From: an uncultured Clostridia bacterium
Lineage (GTDB): Bacteria > Bacillota > Clostridia > TANB77 > CAG-508
DNA length: 64,000 bases
Assembly (NCBI GenBank): GCA_934149075.1
Contig: CAKPDR010000001.1
Coordinates: forward strand, 84,060 to 148,059
Direction of reading: 5' to 3'
A model generated the notes under the pieces. It searched no databases, was not told the DNA's origin, and saw nothing but the letters and a program-made list of their open reading frames with translations. Shown here in pieces: positions 2,265 to 51,807 of the stretch; positions within the stretch are counted from its first letter, which is position 1, and each line of letters opens with the position of its first letter. Made by a program: the position numbers and the translations under genes.

Positions 2265-2900
2265 TCAATAGCTATTGTTCTCTAATATCTTTTTTTGTAA
2301 CACAACTTCAAGTACCGTACATGAAAAATTTGTAACCAATAATATAACCAAATTTGTTTGATAGCAATTTTCTATATCCGTAATATATTTTTTAACATCA
2401 TAATTATCAGTACTATTTTTCTTTTCTTCTTTGTTAGATAACCATTCAAATCTACTTCCTAATGCTGAATTAAATCTTATTTCATTATTATATGATATAA
2501 AATAAAAAAATGTAGTAAAACACCAAAATATAATCTGTATAGCAATAATTGCTTTCATCACACTATTTACATCTTCACTTCTTAGTCTATATTTCTTCAA
2601 TACAAACATTGAACTCACAATTACAACCAGTAGTCCAGCTAACACTATTACAATAGAAAAAAACAAAATCTTATATGACAACTCATTGGCTATATTATAA
2701 TAATTTAATATAGAGCTTATTGAAAATTGTTCTTCTTGCATTGATTTTGATCCAACATCTGTTACAATATAAATTCCAATACGATAAATAATCCATGGAA
2801 TTAGTGACAATATAACATACTTTTCTATAAATTCTCCAATTATTTTCTTTTTTGGTGTCGCTACCTTACCATATATTTCTTCCTCTAAAATTTTTGACAT
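2265..2900 (-). CDS. Hypothetical integral membrane protein (211 aa)
   Basis: ORF track. Several hydrophobic segments. Confidence 0.5.
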   Translation of the reverse strand: MSKILEEEIYGKVATPKKKIIGEFIEKYVILSLIPWIIYRIGIYIVTDVGSKSMQEEQFSISSILNYYNIANELSYKILFFSIVIVLAGLLVVIVSSMFVLKKYRLRSEDVNSVMKAIIAIQIIFWCFTTFFYFISYNNEIRFNSALGSRFEWLSNKEEKKNSTDNYDVKKYITDIENCYQTNLVILLVTNFSCTVLEVVLQKKILENNSY

Positions 2901-3018
2901 AAGAAACTCCTTAATATGTATTTTATTTATAAATTCATATTACTATTTTGTTTTTATTCATCCTATCATAAAATCAGATAATTATCAACTAACTATCCGC
3001 TCTAAAACTTGTAGTTTG

Positions 3019-3502: not shown

Positions 3503-3931
3503 TTATTTGTTTTCTATCGTTATACTTTCTTCTCCATCTTTTATATTTTCTTTAAATGTTAAGTTTTGATTATCCAAGTTATTTTTATCTACTTCTATTG
3601 TATGTTCAGCTCCATCCTTTTCTATATGATATTTTTCTATTGTATGATTATTAGAATCTGTGTAAGTAGTTCCTTTTACTTCTTCTTGCTTTCCATCTTT
3701 ATCAGTAAATATAACTTGAATTGTGTCTTTTGCCTTTTCTGCTAATTCTCCATTAGTTGTTGCATTTACTGTAATAAAACTTCCTGTTAGCATTATTAGC
3801 ATAACTACCACTAATGATACAATTTGTTTTCTTTTATTTATTTTCATATTTTCCTCACTTTCTAAATTAGATATAACTACCCTGTTTCTTACACTTTCAA
3901 CAATTTTTTTATTTAATTCATTATTCACCAT
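3503..3931 (-). CDS. Putative anti-sigma factor (single-pass membrane protein) coupled to the upstream ECF sigma gene
   Basis: Overlaps the sigma gene by 11 nt. Short cytoplasmic N-terminus, one TM (IVSLVVVMLIMLTGSFITV), then an extracytoplasmic domain. Confidence 0.5.
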   Translation of the reverse strand: MVNNELNKKIVESVRNRVVISNLESEENMKINKRKQIVSLVVVMLIMLTGSFITVNATTNGELAEKAKDTIQVIFTDKDGKQEEVKGTTYTDSNNHTIEKYHIEKDGAEHTIEVDKNNLDNQNLTFKENIKDGEESITIENK

Positions 3932-11909: not shown

Positions 11910-12422
11910 TTATAAATTATGCAGTTCTTTTATTATAAAAATTACTAATTTAGTATATATTTTTTTATCGTTTTCTCTAATTAGCTTTATTTCTTTTTCT
12001 TGACTTTCTATTATTTCTCCATTCAATTTTTCTATATCTCTCTGTAAACATACTATTATCTTTTCTTCTTTTACACTTGATATAGATATCGTCGCTTTTG
12101 TGTTAAAACCAAATGTTATTACTTTTATTGGCTTTTCTATGTTCATTTTTTTCAAAAATTCTATTTTGATATCTCCATTTAATACTAAATACTTTGTTTT
12201 TGATATTATCTCATTCATATATTTATATTCATCTGCTTCTAATTTTATATCTTCTAGTACAATTATTTCTTCAAAACAAATATTCTTAACATTTTTTATA
12301 GATTCTTTTGTTATTTCTACAATTTCAATATCACTCTCTTTCAGATTCTTTTTTATAATCTGATTATCTCTTTTTTTCGCAATTATTCCAATTAATGGCA
12401 TAACTCTCTCCTTTGTTGTCAT
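11910..12422 (-). CDS. Hypothetical protein (170 aa)
   Basis: ORF track only. Confidence 0.4.
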   Translation of the reverse strand: MTTKERVMPLIGIIAKKRDNQIIKKNLKESDIEIVEITKESIKNVKNICFEEIIVLEDIKLEADEYKYMNEIISKTKYLVLNGDIKIEFLKKMNIEKPIKVITFGFNTKATISISSVKEEKIIVCLQRDIEKLNGEIIESQEKEIKLIRENDKKIYTKLVIFIIKELHNL

Positions 12423-12459
12423 TATTTCCTAAACTTTTTTTTTTATACTTGTATGCACA

Positions 12460-31285: not shown

Positions 31286-31449
31286 TTACCAGTAGGGACA
31301 CCCATAAATGGTAAATTTTTTTACCACTAGGGACACCCTTTGTAATATTGGGGTTAACATCTTTTTTATAATGGTGTCCCTTCTGGTAATTTTTTTTACC
31401 AAAAATGAGTGTCCCCACTGGTAAAAATTCTTACCAACGGGGACACCCT
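31286..31449. repeat. REP-like cluster A: 5 units (2 forward, 2 reverse, 1 forward)
   Basis: Units at 31286-31314, 31321-31345, 31370-31389(rev), 31396-31424(rev) and 31431-31448. Each is TTACCA-NNN-GGGACAC(C/T)C.., with or without the closing TGGTAA arm. Confidence 0.9.
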
Positions 31450-42600: not shown

Positions 42601-43203
42601 TTAAGTCAATGGATTTGACTGGTAGGTTAATTCGACTTGGTTTAGCAATCCAAGTTCATCCATTCTTTCCATAACCAATTTCAAATCCTTAATAAAATCA
42701 ATCTTTTTAGTTTCATCACGCAAAAGAGCTGCAGGGTGCCAAGTGGGCATATATAATATTCCCTTCTTTTCAATCCATTTACCTCTACTAGCAGTAATCC
42801 CATACTCTTTTCCTAAAATATTTTTTAATGCAACACTTCCCAATAAAACAATAATTTTAGGTTTAACAAGAATCACCTGATTTCTTAAATAATTTAAACA
42901 AGCCATAGCCTCATCATCTTGCGGATTTCTATTGGAAGGAGGTCTGCATTTAACTATATTTGCAATATAAACTTTATTTCTATCTAATCCAATGATTTCA
43001 AATGCCATATTCATTAACTTTCCAGCTTTTCCAACAAAAGGTATTCCCTGAATATCCTCGTCTGCTCCAGGTCCCTCACCAATAAACATTAGATCTGTTT
43101 CTTTGCTTCCTACACCAAATACAACATTACTTCTTGTTTGGCACAATTTACACTTTCTACATTGTTTAGCATCTTCTTCTAATTGTTCCCAATTATTGTA
43201 CAT
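42601..43203 (-). CDS. Uracil-DNA glycosylase, family 4
   Basis: CRKCKLC, GEGPGADED and HPAALLR. Confidence 0.85.
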   Translation of the reverse strand: MYNNWEQLEEDAKQCRKCKLCQTRSNVVFGVGSKETDLMFIGEGPGADEDIQGIPFVGKAGKLMNMAFEIIGLDRNKVYIANIVKCRPPSNRNPQDDEAMACLNYLRNQVILVKPKIIVLLGSVALKNILGKEYGITASRGKWIEKKGILYMPTWHPAALLRDETKKIDFIKDLKLVMERMDELGLLNQVELTYQSNPLT

Positions 43204-43215
43204 ATTTTTCTCCTT

Positions 43216-43273
43216 TTACCAGTGGGGACACCCATTAATGGTAAAAATTTTTACCACTGGGGACACCCATTAC
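43216..43273 (+). repeat. REP-like cluster B: 2 forward units directly 3' of the RAYT-like gene and 12 nt upstream of the UDG start
   Basis: TTACCAGTGGGGACACCCATTAATGGTAA (43216-43244) and TTACCACTGGGGACACCCATTAC (43251-43273). Confidence 0.9.
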
Positions 43274-43288
43274 ATAAATAACTAGTTA

Positions 43289-44051
43289 TTATTCCATCTT
43301 TTTTAAAATTTTTGTAATCTTTGGTCTGTTTATGTTCAAAATTTCTGATAATTTTCTTGCAGAAATATTCGAATTTTTTTTTAGTTCTTTGATAACCTCT
43401 TTAAGATACTCTTCATTATTATTCAACATTTCTATAGAAATGTTTTCGTTATGCAAATATTCGCTAATAACTTCAGCAAAGTTAATCTCTTCGTCAATAT
43501 CATTTATATCAACAATCTTTTTATTTAAATGTTGTTTAAGAAAGACTTCTAAATATTCATCTACACCATAAATCAATTTTGCACATTGTGAATCAATTAT
43601 CTCTTTCTTTCCTAGCCATTCACTATAACTTGAATATTCATAATCCCCTGCATTTTGCACTATTCCGGGCTTTTACAGGGTTATTATGTATATAAACTAA
43701 ACAATTATATAATTGTTCTTTTGACAAAATTGGCTGAGTAAAATATCTATTTCTAAATACTACTCCAACTCTTTTATTTATATAATTATAATGCATTGCA
43801 AAATTTGTGTTGACCATTTGCATAACCTTTGTAACTTCATACGGTTCTATAGTATGAAATAATACATGAGCATGATTTCCCATTATACAATATGAAAGTA
43901 TCTTTGCATTACTTTCTTCTATGTATTTTTTTAAAAGATTTTTGTATTTTTTCTTTAGTTCATCTGTCCTGAAAATAAATTCCTTGTTTATTCCCTGGGA
44001 CATTACATGAAGATATTCTGTCTTCATATCTTTTCTTGCTTTTCGGGGCAT
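43289..44051 (-). pseudogene. HUH/Y1 transposase of the IS200/RAYT type with a C-terminal HTH extension, split by a 1-nt frameshift
   Basis: HUH is GNHAHVL and the catalytic Tyr context is LVYIHNNPVKA. ORF1 stops at 43638. In the other frame the sequence continues GIVQNAGDYEYSSYSEW... to an HTH-like ISARKLSEILNINRPKITKIL. The shift maps to the GCCCGG run at about 43665-43670. The likely start is MPRKARK after AGGAGGAG. Confidence 0.75.
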
Positions 44052-44249
44052 AAGGTCTCCTCCTTTTTTATATTTTATTGCCCCCATCACTCTATTTTAT
44101 AGTTTTATCATATTTTCAAAATTTTGTAAACATAATTCTTGTTTTTTATTAATTTTTTTATTATAAGATAACGATTTATTTTAAATTAATACAAAGAAAG
44201 CTCAATCTTATACTGAGCTTTTTATAGATTATTATAATTTATTTTATTC

Positions 44250-44305
44250 AAAGGTTGTCCCTTGTGGTAAAAATTTTTACCATTAATGAGTGTCCCCAAT
44301 GGTAA
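44250..44305 (-). repeat. REP-like cluster C: 2 reverse units
   Basis: AAAGGTTGTCCCTTGTGGTAA (44250-44270) and TTACCATTAATGAGTGTCCCCAATGGTAA (44277-44305). Confidence 0.9.
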
Positions 44306-45077
44306 AAATTCTTAATGCATTTTCATATGTAATTTTCGCAATTTCATCTATTGGCATTTCCTTAAAATTCGCAATTTTTTGAGCAATGAATTTCACATTT
44401 TTCGAATCATTTCTCTTTCCTCTATTAGGTTCTGGAGACAAATATGGACTATCTGTTTCAATTAAAATTCTATCTAGTGGAACCAATTTTACAATATCTG
44501 ACGCATTTTTTGAATTCTTGAAAGTTACAGGACCTGCAAATGATATATAATATCCTAATTCAAGAGCCTGTTTTATCATCTCTTGATTAAATTGACAGCA
44601 GTGGAAGATTCCTGCCTTTTTCACTGTATGTTCTTTTATAACGTTTATCGTATCAACTGAAGCATCCCTAGAGTGTATCACTATTGGTAAGTTTAATTCA
44701 TTTGCTAAATCTATCTGTTTTATAAACGCTTCTGTTTGTAACTCTTTATTTTCCTTGTTCCAATAATAATCTAGACCAATTTCCCCTATTGCAACTAATT
44801 TATTTGTTTTGTTTTCTTTTATAATTTTAGTTATTTTCTCTATATCTTTCCACAGTTCTTGATCAGATTGTGGAATATCATTAGGCGAAATACCACAAAT
44901 TGAATAAATAAATTCATATTTTTGAGATAATTCTATAGCTTTTTGTGATGACTCTATATTATAACCAGCACATACAAATTTTGTTATTCCAGCTTCATAC
45001 GTTTCTTTTATTATTTGTTCTCTATCTTTATCAAATTTTTCGTCATTATAATGTGAATGCGTATCAAAAAGTTCCAT
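44283..45077 (-). CDS. tatD: TatD-family metal-dependent DNase/hydrolase
   Basis: MELFDTHSHY.., ..GEIGLDY.., ..IHSRDA.., ..ETDSPYL. The last 8 codons and the stop lie inside REP unit C2. Confidence 0.9.
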   Translation of the reverse strand: MELFDTHSHYNDEKFDKDREQIIKETYEAGITKFVCAGYNIESSQKAIELSQKYEFIYSICGISPNDIPQSDQELWKDIEKITKIIKENKTNKLVAIGEIGLDYYWNKENKELQTEAFIKQIDLANELNLPIVIHSRDASVDTINVIKEHTVKKAGIFHCCQFNQEMIKQALELGYYISFAGPVTFKNSKNASDIVKLVPLDRILIETDSPYLSPEPNRGKRNDSKNVKFIAQKIANFKEMPIDEIAKITYENALRIFTIGDTH

Positions 45078-45135: not shown

Positions 45136-45226
45136 AAAGGGTGTCCCCAATGGTAAATTTTTTTACCATTAATGGGTGTCCCCCGTGGTAAACTTTTTTA
45201 CCATTAATGAGTGTCCCTAATGGTAA
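45136..45226 (-). repeat. REP-like cluster D: 3 reverse units
   Basis: 45136-45156, 45163-45191 and 45198-45226 (AAAGGGTGTCCCCAATGGTAA, TTACCATTAATGGGTGTCCCCCGTGGTAA, TTACCATTAATGAGTGTCCCTAATGGTAA). Confidence 0.9.
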
Positions 45227-45584
45227 AAATTGCATTTGCAACTGCATATTCTCTGCAATGAGATATACTTACATCTACGTCCTCAGATTTTATATCATGA
45301 TTTAATATGTTTACATATGGTTTTCCTGTATCATCATTTAAAATTTCTATGTCTTTCCAATTAATGCCATATTTGTCAGGTATCATTACTGAAATTGCTT
45401 TAAATACTGCTTCTTTTGCAGCAAATCTTGCAGCATAATGTTGATATTTTTGTGTCTTTTTACTTTCACAATATTCAATCTCTTTTTCCGTGTACACTCT
45501 CTCGCAAAATTTTCCTTCAGTTTCTTCGATACATTTTTTTACTCTCTCTATTTCAATTATATCTACACCTGTTTTTATCTTCAT
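45204..45584 (-). CDS. acpS: Holo-[acyl-carrier-protein] synthase
   Basis: GVDIIEIERV, FAAKEAVFKA and SISHCREYAVA. The terminal codons and the stop lie inside REP unit D3. Confidence 0.9.
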   Translation of the reverse strand: MKIKTGVDIIEIERVKKCIEETEGKFCERVYTEKEIEYCESKKTQKYQHYAARFAAKEAVFKAISVMIPDKYGINWKDIEILNDDTGKPYVNILNHDIKSEDVDVSISHCREYAVANAIFTIRDTH

Positions 45585-45709: not shown

Positions 45710-46939
45710 CTATTTTCCTAAAAATAATATATTAATCGTATTTATTATTAATGTAATAATTAATATAATTGTAATTGCAACATTATTCTTAGCACTTTTT
45801 TCTATATTCATTTCTTTATATAAAATATCATATTTGTTTTTAGTGTCAAAATAAATTGTATTTAAATCTAAGACTTCTTTTAAATTTTGATAATATAATG
45901 AGCCAGTATCTTCTGATGTCACTTCATTTACCCATAATGTTTGAGTAAAATCAATAAACTCTTTTCTTACTTTATTTATATTTGTTCCTTGTCTAAAATT
46001 TAAGTTAATTTTTGTTAAATAAATTTTGGTATAAAATGCTAATATATATGTATATAAATATTGTTCCTCAAATAAATGTGGAAATATTGTATAATTGTTC
46101 ATGTCACAACTTGAACTAAACAATGTCACTCCTTGTTTAGTTACTCCTAATTTTGCATATTTCCATTTAGATATTACTTTCATATCTTCCTTTGAATAAT
46201 TTACACTATTATCATTTGGTAAAATGTTCAAAAATCTCATATAACTGCTACGTATTTGATCAAATTCAGTAGCACTATTCCAGTTTTCTTGATCAATACA
46301 TACATAAGAAAAAGTTAAAAATCTTTCTGTATCTATGTCAAGCTTAATTGATTCTGTTGTTGGCCCTGTTAAACTTTCTATAAATTCTTTGAAGTATTTT
46401 ACATCATCAAAACAATCTGTTTGAACTCTTATATTATCATAATTATTCATATTCAAAAATTCCTGATTAATATCTCTAAACTTATAGTTAAAGTTTAATA
46501 CATCTGAAAATTTATTACTTCCTTCAATATTGGTTTTAATACATAAAAAACATATTCCTGTATTAAAACATATTATTTCGATCTTTGGTATTTTGAAAAA
46601 TATTCCATTTCTTTCATCAGTTTTTCCTTGTATATCATTTTTTATTGTATATTCAAATATTGTACAAGGATTTTTTGCTAAAACTGCCGCTTTAGTGTCT
46701 AATGGTAATTCATCTAGTCTAGCTAACCTTGTTTTACTTAAATTGAAACTGCTAAACATATAATTTCTTTCTCTATGTGAGAAATACGAATATATATTTA
46801 AATCTTTTTCTTTTCTAAATATTCTTAATTTACAATTTTTATCTTTTAATAGTTTTAATAAATATTTTGCATATCTATTTTCTTTTATTACATAAGGGTA
46901 TATAAAGTATGTATATTGATATTTTGTCTTTAGCTCCAT
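45710..46939 (-). CDS. Hypothetical tail-anchored protein (409 aa; soluble N-terminal domain, single C-terminal TM)
   Basis: ORF track. C-terminus NNVAITIILIITLIINTINILFLGK. No motif recognised. Confidence 0.55.
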   Translation of the reverse strand: MELKTKYQYTYFIYPYVIKENRYAKYLLKLLKDKNCKLRIFRKEKDLNIYSYFSHRERNYMFSSFNLSKTRLARLDELPLDTKAAVLAKNPCTIFEYTIKNDIQGKTDERNGIFFKIPKIEIICFNTGICFLCIKTNIEGSNKFSDVLNFNYKFRDINQEFLNMNNYDNIRVQTDCFDDVKYFKEFIESLTGPTTESIKLDIDTERFLTFSYVCIDQENWNSATEFDQIRSSYMRFLNILPNDNSVNYSKEDMKVISKWKYAKLGVTKQGVTLFSSSCDMNNYTIFPHLFEEQYLYTYILAFYTKIYLTKINLNFRQGTNINKVRKEFIDFTQTLWVNEVTSEDTGSLYYQNLKEVLDLNTIYFDTKNKYDILYKEMNIEKSAKNNVAITIILIITLIINTINILFLGK

Positions 46940-48675: not shown

Positions 48676-49047
48676 CTATTTTACTTTTTTATATTTAGCA
48701 ACTTGTTGTTCTTTAGATTTGATTGTTCTTTTTAAATCTTCAATTTGTTTATCATATAACATACACAAAGAATTAATTTGTTCTTGAGTCAAATCGCTAT
48801 CAGCAATTTCTCCTCTACGATATCTTCTTTGAAGTTCAAAAAGCACTGTTTCCTCGTCTTCTGTTCTTTTTATATATTCTCTGAAATTATAACTTTTTTC
48901 AGCTTCTTCTAGTACAGATTCATCTATTTCGTTTTCAGTATTCTCTTCTTTTTTACTAAATATTTTTCTAAAAAAACTTTTTATCTTTCCAAATATATTA
49001 TTTTCGTTTCTTTCAATTAAATTTTTTTCTTGAGTATTATCTTTCAT
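48676..49047 (-). CDS. Hypothetical charged/coiled-coil protein (123 aa)
   Basis: ORF track only. Confidence 0.45.
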   Translation of the reverse strand: MKDNTQEKNLIERNENNIFGKIKSFFRKIFSKKEENTENEIDESVLEEAEKSYNFREYIKRTEDEETVLFELQRRYRRGEIADSDLTQEQINSLCMLYDKQIEDLKRTIKSKEQQVAKYKKVK

Positions 49048-49051
49048 AATT

Positions 49052-49210
49052 TTATTCTCCTATTTCATTATCATCTTTAGAAATAATTTCTTCAAGTTCA
49101 GCTGTAACTTGTTTGTCTTTTTCTTCTAGCATTTCTGCTTCTGCTTTTCTTCTATGTAAGTCTTCGATTGTAAAGTTTCTTTCTTCTGTTTCTAACATAT
49201 TCTTCTCCAT
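49052..49210 (-). CDS. Small acidic hypothetical protein (52 aa), translationally coupled to the downstream gene
   Basis: Hand-found ORF MEKNMLETEERNFTIEDLHRRKAEAEMLEEKDKQVTAELEEIISKDDNEIGE after GGAGGAG. Its stop lies 4 nt before the next start. Confidence 0.4.
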   Translation of the reverse strand: MEKNMLETEERNFTIEDLHRRKAEAEMLEEKDKQVTAELEEIISKDDNEIGE

Positions 49211-49287
49211 ATAAACTCCTCCCTTGTATAATAAAAGTATATAACATCTCTTTTAGAATTTCAACACTTTTTATGAAATTTTATTAT

Positions 49288-49415
49288 TTACCAGTAGGGA
49301 CACCCATCTTTGGTAAAAAATGTTACCAGAAGGGACACCCTTCATCGCCAAAATGTTGTAAATGGTGTCCCCGGTGGTAAAAAATTTTACCACTAATGAG
49401 TGTCCCCAGTGGTAA
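49288..49415. repeat. REP-like cluster E: 2 forward plus 2 reverse units forming a 128-bp composite palindromic element
   Basis: 49288-49316, 49323-49340, 49360-49380(rev) and 49387-49415(rev). Confidence 0.9.
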
Positions 49416-51807
49416 ATAATTTACAAACAATTATACTCATATCATCCTTTGCAATCCCATAACTATTATCAATCGCCTCATTTAATATTAAATCGGCTAT
49501 TTTTTGTGTATTTGTAGTTTCAATATCTTCTAGCATATATTTGACCCAAAGTTCTTTATTTTTATATTCAATATTTGAATCTAAAATTCCGTCACTGCAC
49601 ATTACTAAAATGTCTTGGTTTTCAATGTCCTTGTCATATGTTGTTAAATTTATATCTTTTAAAATTCCTGCCGGCAAGCTTAATGATTTTACAATTTGAA
49701 CTTTTTTCTTATTTTTTACATATGTTGGGCAAGCACCATTTTTTATAAATTCAATTTTTCCATTATATAAGTCTATAATAGCAATATCTAGTGTTGCAAA
49801 TATCTCTTCATTTGTGTTCATAATTGTTGTATTTATTAAGTCTATTGATGTGTCTTTATCAAATCCAGACATCAATAATCTTTCCAACATTTTTATTGCT
49901 ATTTGGCTACTTTTTCTTGCTTCTGGTCCAGTTCCCATTCCATCACTTAATGCTAACAAATATTTTCCGTCGTTTAATCTAATTTGTATAAAACTGTCTC
50001 CTGATACTGGACTTCCATCTTTTATTTTGGTTGCATGTCCTATTTGAATAATGTACTTATCTGCTGATAAATAACTAAATACTCTTTTTCCTTGCTTATT
50101 TAATTTTTTTGTTTTTGCTTCATTTCTCATTAATTTTTCATTTAAGCATTTTTCTAAAACCTTTTGTACTTTGTCAATATCTGTATTTTCACTTGTTTTA
50201 CTATTTTCTTGTAAATATACATCTATAAAATACCTATTATCTTGCTTATTTATTTCTATTCCATCCACCAAAATTTCTTTTATTTCAAGTGCTGTAATAG
50301 CCTTCTTTTTTTCTTCTAGTAAATTATCATCTTGTTTTATTTCTTCTTCTATCTTTACTGCAATGCTTGAAATTGCTTTTGATACTCCATCTAATTGTGC
50401 TTGTACATTTTTCTTATTTGATTTTACTTTTTCTTTCCAGATAAAATTAGATTTACTTACTTTGTATGCATAATTTACTGCTTTTACTATTTGTTCTATG
50501 TCACTGTTCATTCTTTTGCTGATTTTTTCATCATCATATTGAACTATATAATTATTGAATTTTGCAAATGTTTTTAGTAAATCTTCTCTATCTATTTCTT
50601 GCTTGTCTAATAGAATATCAAATAATTCATTTACAATTTCATTTTCTGGTTTTACCATATCTTCATATAGCATATTGTCTTCAAGACCATCAAGATTATT
50701 TAATAATTCTGTTATAAATGATTGTCTATTTTTAAAGTACATATTTGTTTCTGGTTTTTCTTGATATGTATTTGCCATATCTTTTATTGTTTCTGAAACC
50801 ATATTTAACTGATTTATTGTTTCTTTGCTTTGTTCTAGACCTCTTTTATTATATTCAGGTAACATATTATCACTTTTAATAAGTTCTTCTACATCTATTC
50901 CCGCCCATTTTGGAATTGCAAGTAGCCCTAATGATGCAACTAATGCTTCTTTAAATACAACTAAATCCGTTGCTGTTCCTTTTGAGGCATATAACAATAT
51001 TCCATTTCCTATCAAGAATCCTATTATTACACCTAATTTTCCAAATCTATTTAAAAATCCTGCAATCATTCCTGAAATAGCATATACTGCAATTACCATT
51101 GGTTCATTTTGAGCAATTATTCCTAATGTTACTCCTATTGTAACACCTGCTGTTGTTCCTACTAGTACTCCATTTCTCCAACCAAGTATCAATACCATTA
51201 ATATACTTAAAATATTTCTGATTGATAATCCTAATATTGAAAAGTCACCAAATGCTGAAACTGCTATTGATACAAGCAAACTTGCTCCAATTACTTCTTC
51301 TATAGAAAATGCTCTTTTTTCTGTTATTTCTTGTATTACTATCAATGAATTAACAAAAATTTTATAAAATACAACAGAAAATATTGCTAAAGTTATATGT
51401 AATAACATATCACCAATTGTGAATTTTGTTAAAACTAATTTGGCAATCATTACCAATAATATACTTGCAAATACATGCATTGATATTTGCATTTGCTCAT
51501 TTTTGTATTGGTCGTTCTCTTTTGGAGGTTTTATGCATAATAATATTAATAGCATTAATATTATTAATATATAATTTAAAACACCTATGGCTCCAACCCC
51601 TATAAAATTACCAATAAGTCCTGCTACTACAACCATTATGGCAGGTACTCCTCCTGCTAAACTAGCAGCTACTATTGCTATACTAAATGGTGAAACTTCT
51701 TGTCCCATTCCTATTGTTGATATCATAAATGCTATTATATATATAATTATATTCTTTATATTTATTAAATTTTTTAGTATTTCTTTTCCTGTATTTTGTT
51801 TTGACAT
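49393..51807 (-). CDS. spoIIE: Stage II sporulation protein E (polytopic membrane PP2C phosphatase)
   Basis: About 10 N-terminal TM helices, a central domain and a C-terminal PP2C (ALSDGMGTG...MCSDG..., DDMSIIV). The likely start is MSKQNTG after GAGGTGG. The last codons and the TAG stop lie inside REP unit E4. Confidence 0.85.
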   Translation of the reverse strand: MSKQNTGKEILKNLINIKNIIIYIIAFMISTIGMGQEVSPFSIAIVAASLAGGVPAIMVVVAGLIGNFIGVGAIGVLNYILIILMLLILLCIKPPKENDQYKNEQMQISMHVFASILLVMIAKLVLTKFTIGDMLLHITLAIFSVVFYKIFVNSLIVIQEITEKRAFSIEEVIGASLLVSIAVSAFGDFSILGLSIRNILSILMVLILGWRNGVLVGTTAGVTIGVTLGIIAQNEPMVIAVYAISGMIAGFLNRFGKLGVIIGFLIGNGILLYASKGTATDLVVFKEALVASLGLLAIPKWAGIDVEELIKSDNMLPEYNKRGLEQSKETINQLNMVSETIKDMANTYQEKPETNMYFKNRQSFITELLNNLDGLEDNMLYEDMVKPENEIVNELFDILLDKQEIDREDLLKTFAKFNNYIVQYDDEKISKRMNSDIEQIVKAVNYAYKVSKSNFIWKEKVKSNKKNVQAQLDGVSKAISSIAVKIEEEIKQDDNLLEEKKKAITALEIKEILVDGIEINKQDNRYFIDVYLQENSKTSENTDIDKVQKVLEKCLNEKLMRNEAKTKKLNKQGKRVFSYLSADKYIIQIGHATKIKDGSPVSGDSFIQIRLNDGKYLLALSDGMGTGPEARKSSQIAIKMLERLLMSGFDKDTSIDLINTTIMNTNEEIFATLDIAIIDLYNGKIEFIKNGACPTYVKNKKKVQIVKSLSLPAGILKDINLTTYDKDIENQDILVMCSDGILDSNIEYKNKELWVKYMLEDIETTNTQKIADLILNEAIDNSYGIAKDDMSIIVCKLFTTGDTH

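Follow-up and report, generated by a model that had tools for sequence, protein, structure and literature searches.

In the genome of an uncultured Clostridia bacterium (GenBank assembly GCA_934149075.1, contig CAKPDR010000001.1), a composite palindromic repeat lies across the 3′ end of spoIIE, the gene for the sporulation phosphatase SpoIIE. The stretch analysed here, hereafter the window, comprises 64,000 nucleotides (positions 84,060 to 148,059 of the contig), and coordinates below refer to it. It is very probable that a transposase-linked repeat, similar to the repetitive extragenic palindromic (REP) sequences, was inserted into the last codons of spoIIE and now encodes the terminal residues FTTGDTH together with the TAG stop codon, the tail itself probably being neutral. 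Such a capture had been proposed in the initial annotation, and it is supported by the native tails of related SpoIIE proteins, by an empty site in a related DNA stretch (L037), and by the collinearity of a repeat-free relative (L002).

The repeat element at the end of spoIIE

The protein has both features expected of SpoIIE, an N-terminal multi-pass membrane region and a C-terminal PP2C domain. It matches TIGR02865 with an E-value of 1e-127 and 427 bits, below the cut-off of 490.8, and this match stops at residue 800 of 807. The structures of Bacillus subtilis SpoIIE (5UCG, 5MQH, and 3T91) are matched with E ~1e-44, and the homology to 5UCG ends at ...VCKL. The listed reading frame starts with GTG, and relatives begin at an ATG three codons further in, which gives 804 residues. 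Its C-terminus reads ...IIVCKLFTTGDTH before the stop (also written as ...DDMSIIVCKLFTTGDTH). As originally annotated, spoIIE runs into the outermost repeat unit, E4, and a codon-by-codon reading of the minus strand agrees with this: TTT (49416-14), ACC (49413-11), ACT (49410-08), GGG (49407-05), GAC (49404-02), ACT (49401-399), and CAT (49398-96) are followed by TAG (49395-93).

The composite consists of a full unit and a half unit, a spacer of 18-19 nt, and a half unit and a full unit in the opposite orientation, with the heads of both arms facing outward. A full unit (TTACCA-N3-GGGACAC-yCAT-N3-TGGTAA) is 29 nt long and forms a hairpin with itself; about 6 nt of A/T come next, giving a tandem period of 35 nt. 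The half units E2 and E3 comprise TTACCAnnnGGGACACCC followed by TTTA (their end reads ...GGGACACCC-TTTA) and lack the closing TGGTAA. The earlier coordinates and strands of the four units E1 to E4 were reproduced exactly, with the refinements that the arms extend slightly further, to 49283-49420, and that the inner units are truncated. The two inverted arms (49283-49342 and 49361-49420) are 60 nt each, 78% complementary, and separated by 18 nt. The E4 hairpin, TTACCACTGGGGACACTCATTAGTGGTAA, has a DNA folding energy of -7.0 kcal/mol (z -4.2). As RNA, the whole composite forms a single long hairpin with a folding energy of -72.2 kcal/mol, compared with -34.3 +/- 3.9 for shuffled sequences (z = -9.6). 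The spoIIE stop codon is buried at the base of this hairpin (-72 kcal/mol), which may have an effect on termination or mRNA 3′-end stability. Intrinsic terminator prediction over 48900-49700 returned no candidate, and no U-tract follows the hairpin. Just past the element, the promoter-like site of a small downstream gene is intact, and this site is also kept in relatives without the element.

Native, empty, and decayed sites in related genomes

The end of SpoIIE was compared among its 120 best homologues (86-98% identity) and 35 species-representative genomes, all of which are metagenome-assembled genomes of uncultured gut Clostridia with about 26% G+C. DNA stretches of relatives, denoted by L numbers, cover 5-22 kb each. 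Among the 120 homologues, a tail of the seven-residue type is limited to the closest clade (FTTGDTH, FTTVDTH, FTNVDTH, FTTMDAH, CMSNDTH, FSMGSTY, and FDTGETIK). All other homologues, with 92% SpoIIE identity or less, end in CK[L/F/I] followed by three to five unrelated residues, such as VKQ, GKK, VKKA, VKQKE, or IKNL, and the same split is seen in the 35 species representatives. It had been reasoned in the initial annotation that the capture would fail if orthologues in genomes lacking the repeat also ended in FTTGDTH; outside the closest clade the ends are unrelated to it, and the capture was not refuted. Aligning the C-termini and comparing the stop codons, as had been suggested there, gave FVKQ-TAA for L037 and GKK-TGA for L002.

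On either side of the element, the window can be aligned with both L002 and L037, upstream at ...TGTAAATT and downstream at TGG(T/A)AA(A/T)AATAAAATTT...GTGTTGAAATT. The identity of L002 to the window extends upstream over ...ATTGTTTG(T/C)AAATT and downstream over TGG(A/T)AA...AAATTT...AAAAAGTGTTGAAATT, where the small, conserved downstream gene has its promoter region. Since the flanks are collinear in this repeat-free relative, the element is a clean insertion of about 120-135 nt, which displaced the native SpoIIE tail (FVKQ or FGKK) and its stop. Even the native tail is labile. Just after CK(F), L037 has 21 nt (GTAAAACAATAAATTAAAATT) that are deleted in L002, whose end is thereby changed from VKQ-TAA to GKK-TGA.

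L037 and L038 (SpoIIE identity 92%) contain the repeat family, the associated transposase gene, and repeat-derived tails on the neighbouring genes tatD and acpS, yet their spoIIE ends in FVKQ-TAA with no repeat 3′ of it. This is a true empty site. With spoIIE empty and tatD and acpS filled, the spoIIE insertion is the younger event and took place in a genome that already held the family; the tatD and acpS captures are earlier. The spoIIE insertion was acquired by an ancestor that the window organism shares with its closest relatives, once the L037 lineage had branched off.

In the DNA sampled from several close relatives, intact repeats are few or absent: L093 (98% SpoIIE identity, ending in FTNVDTH), L091 (97%, CMSNDTH), L039 (94%, FDTGETIK), and L092 (90%, FSMGSTY). 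The transposase gene is absent from the tatD-udg junction of L091, L093, and L039, and the 5.4-kb contig of L092 stops short of this junction. L093 retains a unit in each orientation, both with damaged cores, and L091 has a relic palindrome, GACACTCATTAAGTG...CACTTATGAGTGTC. These decayed remains in L091, L093, L092, and L039 imply descent from the insertion rather than independent native tails.

In favour of FTTGDTH being native to SpoIIE and resembling the repeat by coincidence, or of the family having been seeded from the 3′ end of spoIIE, it could be argued that several close relatives whose sampled DNA is poor in intact repeats keep a seven-residue tail with the stop in the same place. 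These same relatives, however, show palindromic relics after the stop; homologues with no more than 92% identity and more than 30 distant species have unrelated tails of three to five residues; L037 has the family and an empty site; and tatD and acpS share the repeat tail while their native ends differ. A native origin is thus extremely improbable. Equally little credence can be given to a metagenomic chimera that joined a spoIIE contig to a repeat copy. Repeats do break assemblies, and many contigs with transposase homologues have a length of only about 1 kb, but the same junction and tail recur in independent assemblies from different samples (P0004, P0006, P0009, and L014), and both flanks of the element are syntenic with repeat-free relatives.

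Two further relatives show other changes at this site. In L001, which has the SpoIIE tail FYTEKPH, spoIIE is followed at 12411-12455 by a perfect 20-nt palindrome (AAAAACCTCATTAATGGTAA, 5 nt, TTACCATTAATGAGGTTTTT). Both of its arms carry one derived core (GGGGACAC changed to AAAAACC), which suggests either a concerted change of the arms or selection keeping the hairpin. In L014 (12434-12688), a single repeat unit after spoIIE is followed by another palindrome of about 255 nt with 68-nt arms (78% complementary), beyond which the native downstream sequence resumes; this appears to be another small mobile element, nested within the site of the repeat.

The repeat family and its candidate transposase

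The repeat core, TTACCASNRGGGACAC, was found 16 times in the window with no more than two mismatches (0.05 expected), and none of 100 shuffled sequences reached this number. The matches fall into five clusters (Table 1), and single-unit hairpins range from -4 to -8.6 kcal/mol. The three positions between TTACCA and GGG are variable (GTA, CTA, GAA, GTG, CTG, TTG, ACG, CGG, or CCG). The 29-nt units are short, imperfect palindromes in many copies, as is characteristic of REP sequences. GTAG occurs in many of them (CCAGTAGGG) and is neither invariant nor terminal, which sets them apart from REPs with an invariant GTAG/CGTC. The 2+2 composite architecture is present at eight loci, spoIIE and seven others, and the central spacers vary in sequence and length. 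An Rfam scan of the whole window at gathering thresholds detected only two tRNAs and no known RNA family over the repeat. A CRISPR array was rejected on the basis that only 6 nt of A/T separate the units, that arrays contain two to five units, and that both orientations and many loci are involved. One additional two-mismatch core match, TTACCAATAGTGATACAC, lies inside the tatD coding sequence (44675-44690, minus strand), where it encodes LPIVIH; since repeat-free relatives such as L002 have it too, it is a chance match and no insertion.

Table 1. Features of the window that relate to the repeat family, ordered from spoIIE outward (strand +, -, or both).
Feature	Position	Strand	Basis or remark
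spoIIE, 807 codons	49393..51816	-	SpoIIE_N PF19732 and PP2C SpoIIE PF07228
Seven repeat-encoded codons, FTTGDTH	49396..49416	-	direct reading
spoIIE stop TAG	49393..49395	-	in 3′ half of E4 hairpin stem
Composite palindromic REP element (REPIN-like)	49283..49420	both	arms, RNA fold, 7 other loci alike
Outer full unit E1	49288..49316	+	head toward small downstream gene
Inner half unit E2	49323-49340	+	borders locus-specific central spacer
Inner half unit E3	49360-49380	-	borders locus-specific central spacer
Outer full unit E4	49387..49415	-	holds spoIIE last codons and stop
Promoter-like TTGAAA-17-TATACT of small downstream gene (start 49210)	49236..49264	-	just past element, intact
acpS, ends ...IFTIRDTH	45204..45584	-	native ends ...VIAVL or ...VVVIF
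Three-unit array after acpS	45141..45226	-	core search
tatD, ends ...RIFTIGDTH	44283..45077	-	native ends ...RIFNI or ...RIFEI
Array on tatD side of transposase gene	44255..44305	-	head gives tatD last codons and stop
RAYT/TIRYT-type Y1 (HUH) transposase gene, candidate mobiliser	43289..44051	-	PF01797, NF047646
Transposase catalytic core (HAH, Y-IHNNP), frame 1	44051-43668	-	motifs
Conserved +1 frameshift site GCC_CGG_A	43664..43670	-	one extra C
Transposase Ser motif and C-terminal winged helix-turn-helix, +1 frame	43666-43289	-	motifs, HTH_24
Array on udg side of transposase gene, full and near-full unit	43216..43270	+	head abuts udg Shine-Dalgarno
Composite of 2 forward and 2 reverse units with extra half unit	31286..31448	both	5 nt from DUF1836 gene stop
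All repeat clusters	31286-31448, 43216-43270, 44255-44305, 45141-45226, 49288-49415		core search of window

About 5 kb from the spoIIE element, a candidate mobiliser of the family spans two open reading frames (43638..44090 and 43289..43660, minus strand). Its neighbours are tatD and udg, and inverted repeat arrays with outward-pointing heads border it on both sides. The product matches PF01797 (E 3e-11) and, with its first reading frame only, the REP-associated tyrosine transposase (RAYT) model NF047646 (E 2e-13). An IS200/IS605 element was considered and rejected: the gene is single-copy, it has no tnpB neighbour, and the IS200 model gives a weak match (E 6e-4, 20 bits against a cut-off of 55). 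Residues H60-A-H62, Y120-IHN-N124-P125, and S140 are invariant in 34 homologues. A search of the PDB with the single sequence gave no match; with a family profile, the best solved structure is Escherichia coli TnpA_REP (4ER8, E 3e-5), whereas IS200-family structures reach an E-value of about 0.5. The HUH and Y---NP motifs and the greater closeness to TnpA_REP than to IS200 TnpA are the signature of RAYTs. In the conceptual product of 253 residues, HTH_24 is matched at residues 216-253 (E 4e-6), and uninterrupted homologues of 250-280 residues cover 100% of this product.

As expected for a cognate Y1 gene, it is single-copy in the window and in each related locus, and in 49 metagenome loci the only further copy found was a C-terminal fragment (L085). 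The gene is present at tatD-udg only in repeat-bearing lineages (the window, L001, L014, and L037/38, and, with a variant repeat, L089/90), and lineages without it at this site have no repeats or decayed relics only. L089/L090 have an intact 279-residue orthologue at the same site, which is 53% identical and flanked by the variant repeat TTACCATGGGGACGGAGTTAATGGTAA, again with a 35-nt period. The pairing of a variant repeat with a diverged orthologue implies that repeat and enzyme have co-diverged. Around the intact transposase gene of L089, at 2880-3000 and 3840-3906, a lineage-specific variant core, GGGGACGGAG, was observed, and tatD of L089 ends in RIFEILPQ, reading into a degenerate head in another frame.

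A simple gain of the transposase gene followed by vertical descent was rejected, since the native tatD-udg junction of relatives with 97-98% SpoIIE identity is not derivable by deletion. Native tatD ends and tatD-udg spacers are found in L091, L093, and L039 (94-98% SpoIIE identity) at the place of window positions 43203-44305. The transposase cassette is apparently polymorphic in its presence, having been shuffled between close lineages by recombination. Contigs with full-length transposase homologues (P0121-P0240) are mostly about 0.9-1.3 kb long, approximately the length of the gene; this fits assembly breaks at flanking repeats and hints that related families are widespread in gut Clostridia.

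With regard to the genes that separate these clusters from spoIIE, a 409-residue protein (45710-46939, minus strand) and the 52- and 123-residue proteins encoded downstream of spoIIE (48676-49210, minus strand) have no Pfam match. Their synteny is conserved across related Clostridia.

A conserved frameshift in the transposase gene

The two transposase reading frames are offset by one extra C, and dropping this nucleotide restores the consensus ...YIHNNPVKA-GIVQNAGDYEYSSY.... The identical frameshift is found in the window, L001, L014, and L037, at a mutual synonymous divergence (dS) of 0.5-0.9. Both parts are under purifying selection, with ratios of nonsynonymous to synonymous divergence (dN/dS) of 0.10-0.18 upstream and 0.21-0.42 downstream of the shift, and the downstream frame contains no stop in 125-132 codons. 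L014 lacks the GTG that could serve for a restart of the second reading frame. CGG is among the rarest codons of the window (0.42 per 1000). It was reported that +1 shifts occur at a rare CGG_A in glass-sponge mitochondria, where a C is inserted before GGA, and that these are read like the yeast Ty3 site GCG_AGU_U (PMC5009743). On this pattern of conservation, a programmed +1 ribosomal frameshift at the CGG codon of the transposase gene is plausible.

Capture of other gene ends

Contrary to what had been implied initially, the capture is not confined to spoIIE; the repeat closes tatD and acpS of the window in the same frame, and three conserved housekeeping or developmental genes within 6 kb share a foreign seven-codon type of tail. 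For a wider census, public metagenome contigs were scanned with the full unit, and the resulting 49 gut-metagenome stretches were pooled with the window. This gave 59 non-redundant outward array heads, 34 of which face the 3′ end of a co-directional open reading frame of at least 100 codons. For 10 of these gene-facing heads, the array contains the stop codon, while a native stop is found 0-6 nt before the head for 14 and at 11-12 nt for six; the remainder comprises three heads farther off and one likely read-through. Seven of the 10 captured tails are in the F-T-x-G/R-D-T-H frame, e.g., ...FFKNFTSRDTH, ...ILNFTNRDTH, and ...LQKITSGDTH, and the tails in other frames are YQ, YQWGHS, and LP.GTPISG. 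This frame bias was considered as evidence for targeting and was not used, as the binomial p of ~0.02 for a pre-specified frame is weakly significant. Another eleven heads lie directly against the Shine-Dalgarno sequence of a gene that points away from the array, that of udg in the window included. The sampled arrays thus mostly occupy the gap between a stop codon and a ribosome-binding site, with about three in ten overrunning the stop. Native spacers are tiny (6-30 nt for tatD-udg), so purifying selection acting on unspecific insertions could by itself give the placement at gene boundaries.

The termini of REPs have been reported to often supply the stop codons of flanking open reading frames (PMC3733652). 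The capture of the SpoIIE C-terminus is a typical and probably neutral by-product, an event of a kind already known for REPs. For annotation, it means that C-terminal differences between close strains can stem from repeat capture, with a bearing on gene calling, orthology clustering, and proteomics of metagenome-assembled gut Clostridia.

The tail itself is most likely inconsequential. Among eight tail-bearing homologues, 16 of 56 tail positions differ, against 263 of 6376 in the body of the protein. As the tail thus diverges about seven times faster than the rest of SpoIIE, it is probably a neutral passenger, situated past the last PP2C beta-strand. It could be argued that the tail has gained a role, e.g., as a degradation or localisation signal, given that the stop position (804 residues) is held in nine of 10 tail-bearing homologues and that D-T-H is fairly well kept. 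Such a role is very unlikely in view of the rapid divergence, of the same peptide being present on the unrelated TatD and AcpS proteins, and of native tails that are short and variable, one of them having arisen via a 21-nt deletion.

A different explanation for the position of the arrays is that they are host-selected modules of gene ends (mRNA 3′ stabilisers, attenuators, or protein sites) served by a domesticated Y1 enzyme, the overlap with the stop then being regulatory. Consistent with it, 30 of the 34 gene-facing heads lie across the stop or no more than 12 nt away, and 11 others abut a Shine-Dalgarno sequence. The symmetry of the hairpin outlasts decay, as in the L001 palindrome with common derived changes in its perfect 20-nt arms and in the L091 relic. 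The transposase gene is single-copy, at one syntenic site and under purifying selection, and RAYTs have been called domesticated (PMC5581495). However, the U-tract signature of a terminator is absent, many close relatives with an unchanged gene order and seemingly normal genes do without the arrays, tails and relics drift freely, and short spacers combined with purifying selection on random insertions would likewise give a tight placement. On balance, host-selected modules are rather unlikely.

Proposed mechanism and the points that weigh against it

In the favoured explanation, insertion of a mobile repeat, the Y1 enzyme would mobilise array arms or composites as single-stranded hairpins, as has been proposed for REP/REPIN-RAYT systems. 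The genome is compact, with stop and Shine-Dalgarno sequence often less than 20 nt apart, and the insertions surviving selection would be those that fall between a stop and the ribosome-binding site after it, or those located just a few codons before a stop. The head carries early stops (after seven codons in frame a), so a gene that lost its own stop would be closed almost at once.

Several observations weigh against this explanation. The unconserved central spacers imply that the composite may be two independently inserted arms and not one mobile REPIN. The NF047646 score of the transposase (50.6 bits, from the first reading frame only) is under the NCBIfam cut-off of 80, and with a split reading frame the activity hinges on frameshifting or on the core of 137-150 residues alone. 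The presence of the transposase does not track SpoIIE identity (L093, at 98%, is without it), which requires recombination or repeated loss. Its putative role as mobiliser is drawn from co-occurrence and flanking arrangement. The insertion junction is ambiguous as well, because the native right flank, TGGAAAAAAA, resembles the TGGTAAA foot of the unit. Compared with L002, the event at spoIIE is a pure insertion; relative to L037, it needs a loss of 21 nt including the native stop, and L002 already lacks these 21 nt. The ancestor must have resembled L002, or else the 21 nt were lost along with the insertion. Comparison of filled and empty sites at spoIIE, tatD, and acpS revealed no unambiguous target-site duplication: TTTA is found on the head side in all three genes, and TAAA past the far end in spoIIE and tatD only, where both can equally be read as unit stem, and at the far end of acpS a half unit is followed by ...GATGAA and then TAAAAAAGT.

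It is also conceivable, though doubtful, that these features together constitute an undescribed active REP system of low-G+C gut Clostridia, combining a frameshift-throttled transposase, targeting of heads to junctions of stop and Shine-Dalgarno sequence, and a stop cassette that operates in multiple frames. If so, full-length transposase (core and helix-turn-helix) would be made solely via a +1 shift at GCY_CGG_A, a tRNA-dependent throttle on mobility. The enzyme itself, and not selection alone, would place heads at these junctions, and the head would systematically rewrite the C-termini of about 30% of adjacent genes, spoIIE, tatD, and acpS among them.

Comparison with known systems

The initial label of the element as a REP was right in kind, and the more exact designation is a RAYT/TIRYT-associated repeat, with a cognate Y1 gene and GGGGWSAS flanks. 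TIRtrons have been described as RAYT-like (TIRYT) genes with GGGGWSAS inverted repeats that also occur as dimers and clusters (Di Nocera, De Gregorio & Rocco 2013, PMC3733652). Subclass 2.1 of TnpA_Y1 is characterised by a C-terminal helix-turn-helix, a Y---NP motif, a Ser motif, and the GGGGWSAS motif (Quentin et al. 2018, PMC6006769), and RAYT Group 1 has been reported in Clostridia (Bertels et al. 2017, PMC5581495); the TIRtrons correspond to this subclass and this group. In the window, GGGGACAC is found in both arrays beside the transposase gene and fits GGGGWSAS. By its features, the enzyme resembles TIRYT, subclass 2.1, and RAYT Group 1 proteins in being a Y1 transposase longer than IS200 TnpA with a C-terminal helix-turn-helix, Y---NP, and Ser motif, and the intact L089 orthologue has the same layout. 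As in TIRtrons, the gene is single-copy, its flanks are inverted GGGGWSAS repeats, and the flanking repeat has been amplified as singles, dimers, and clusters. Unlike in TIRtrons, the flanking units here are REP-like hairpins in 35-nt tandem arrays and are abundant (five clusters in 64 kb); in subclass 2.1, REP-like structures were reported to be missing from the vicinity of the gene, and in Group 1 the flanking 16-mers were reported to be low-copy only. The conserved +1 frameshift and the host, an uncultured gut Clostridia lineage with 26% G+C, are further differences.

The family shares with the REP/BIME-RAYT and REPIN systems of Enterobacteria and Pseudomonas the occurrence of short extragenic palindromes mostly just 3′ of genes, inverted doublets forming long hairpins, and a single-copy RAYT gene with its own repeats on both sides. 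Further likenesses are the vertical co-evolution of the repeat with its transposase (L089), decay where the RAYT gene is missing, and donation of stop codons (PMC3733652). It differs from classical REPs in lacking an invariant GTAG head and in a transposase that has an additional helix-turn-helix and scores below the NCBIfam RAYT cut-off, and from BIMEs, which alternate, in head-to-tail units with a fixed 35-nt period and a distinct terminal half unit. These sequence features place the element, as a new member from an uncultured gut Clostridia lineage, among the known families of RAYT/TIRYT-associated repeats. It adds to REP/RAYT biology a Firmicute system in which a Y1 transposase with a helix-turn-helix is flanked by an abundant hairpin-forming repeat, and its natural filled, empty, and decayed sites, together with a variant repeat and diverged orthologue, provide material for testing co-evolution and mobilisation; the possible programmed frameshift adds to the value of this natural data set.

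Rickettsia palindromic elements (RPE) are small palindromic repeats that add translated residues to conserved, functional proteins. Small mobile sequences of the enterobacterial RU/ERIC type also occur inside genes (PMC2759123). The spoIIE element resembles both groups in that a palindromic repeat contributes residues to an otherwise conserved protein; they differ in that RPE and RU/ERIC sequences lie in frame within the protein body and add 20-50 residues, whereas here the C-terminal seven residues and the stop are contributed and a cognate transposase is present. For E. coli, Liang, Rudd and Deutscher reportedly found in 2015 that REPs no more than 15 nt from a stop codon lower translation via ribosome stalling. 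The spoIIE element likewise places a stable hairpin at or next to the stop, with the stop here inside the hairpin and a putative effect on expression.

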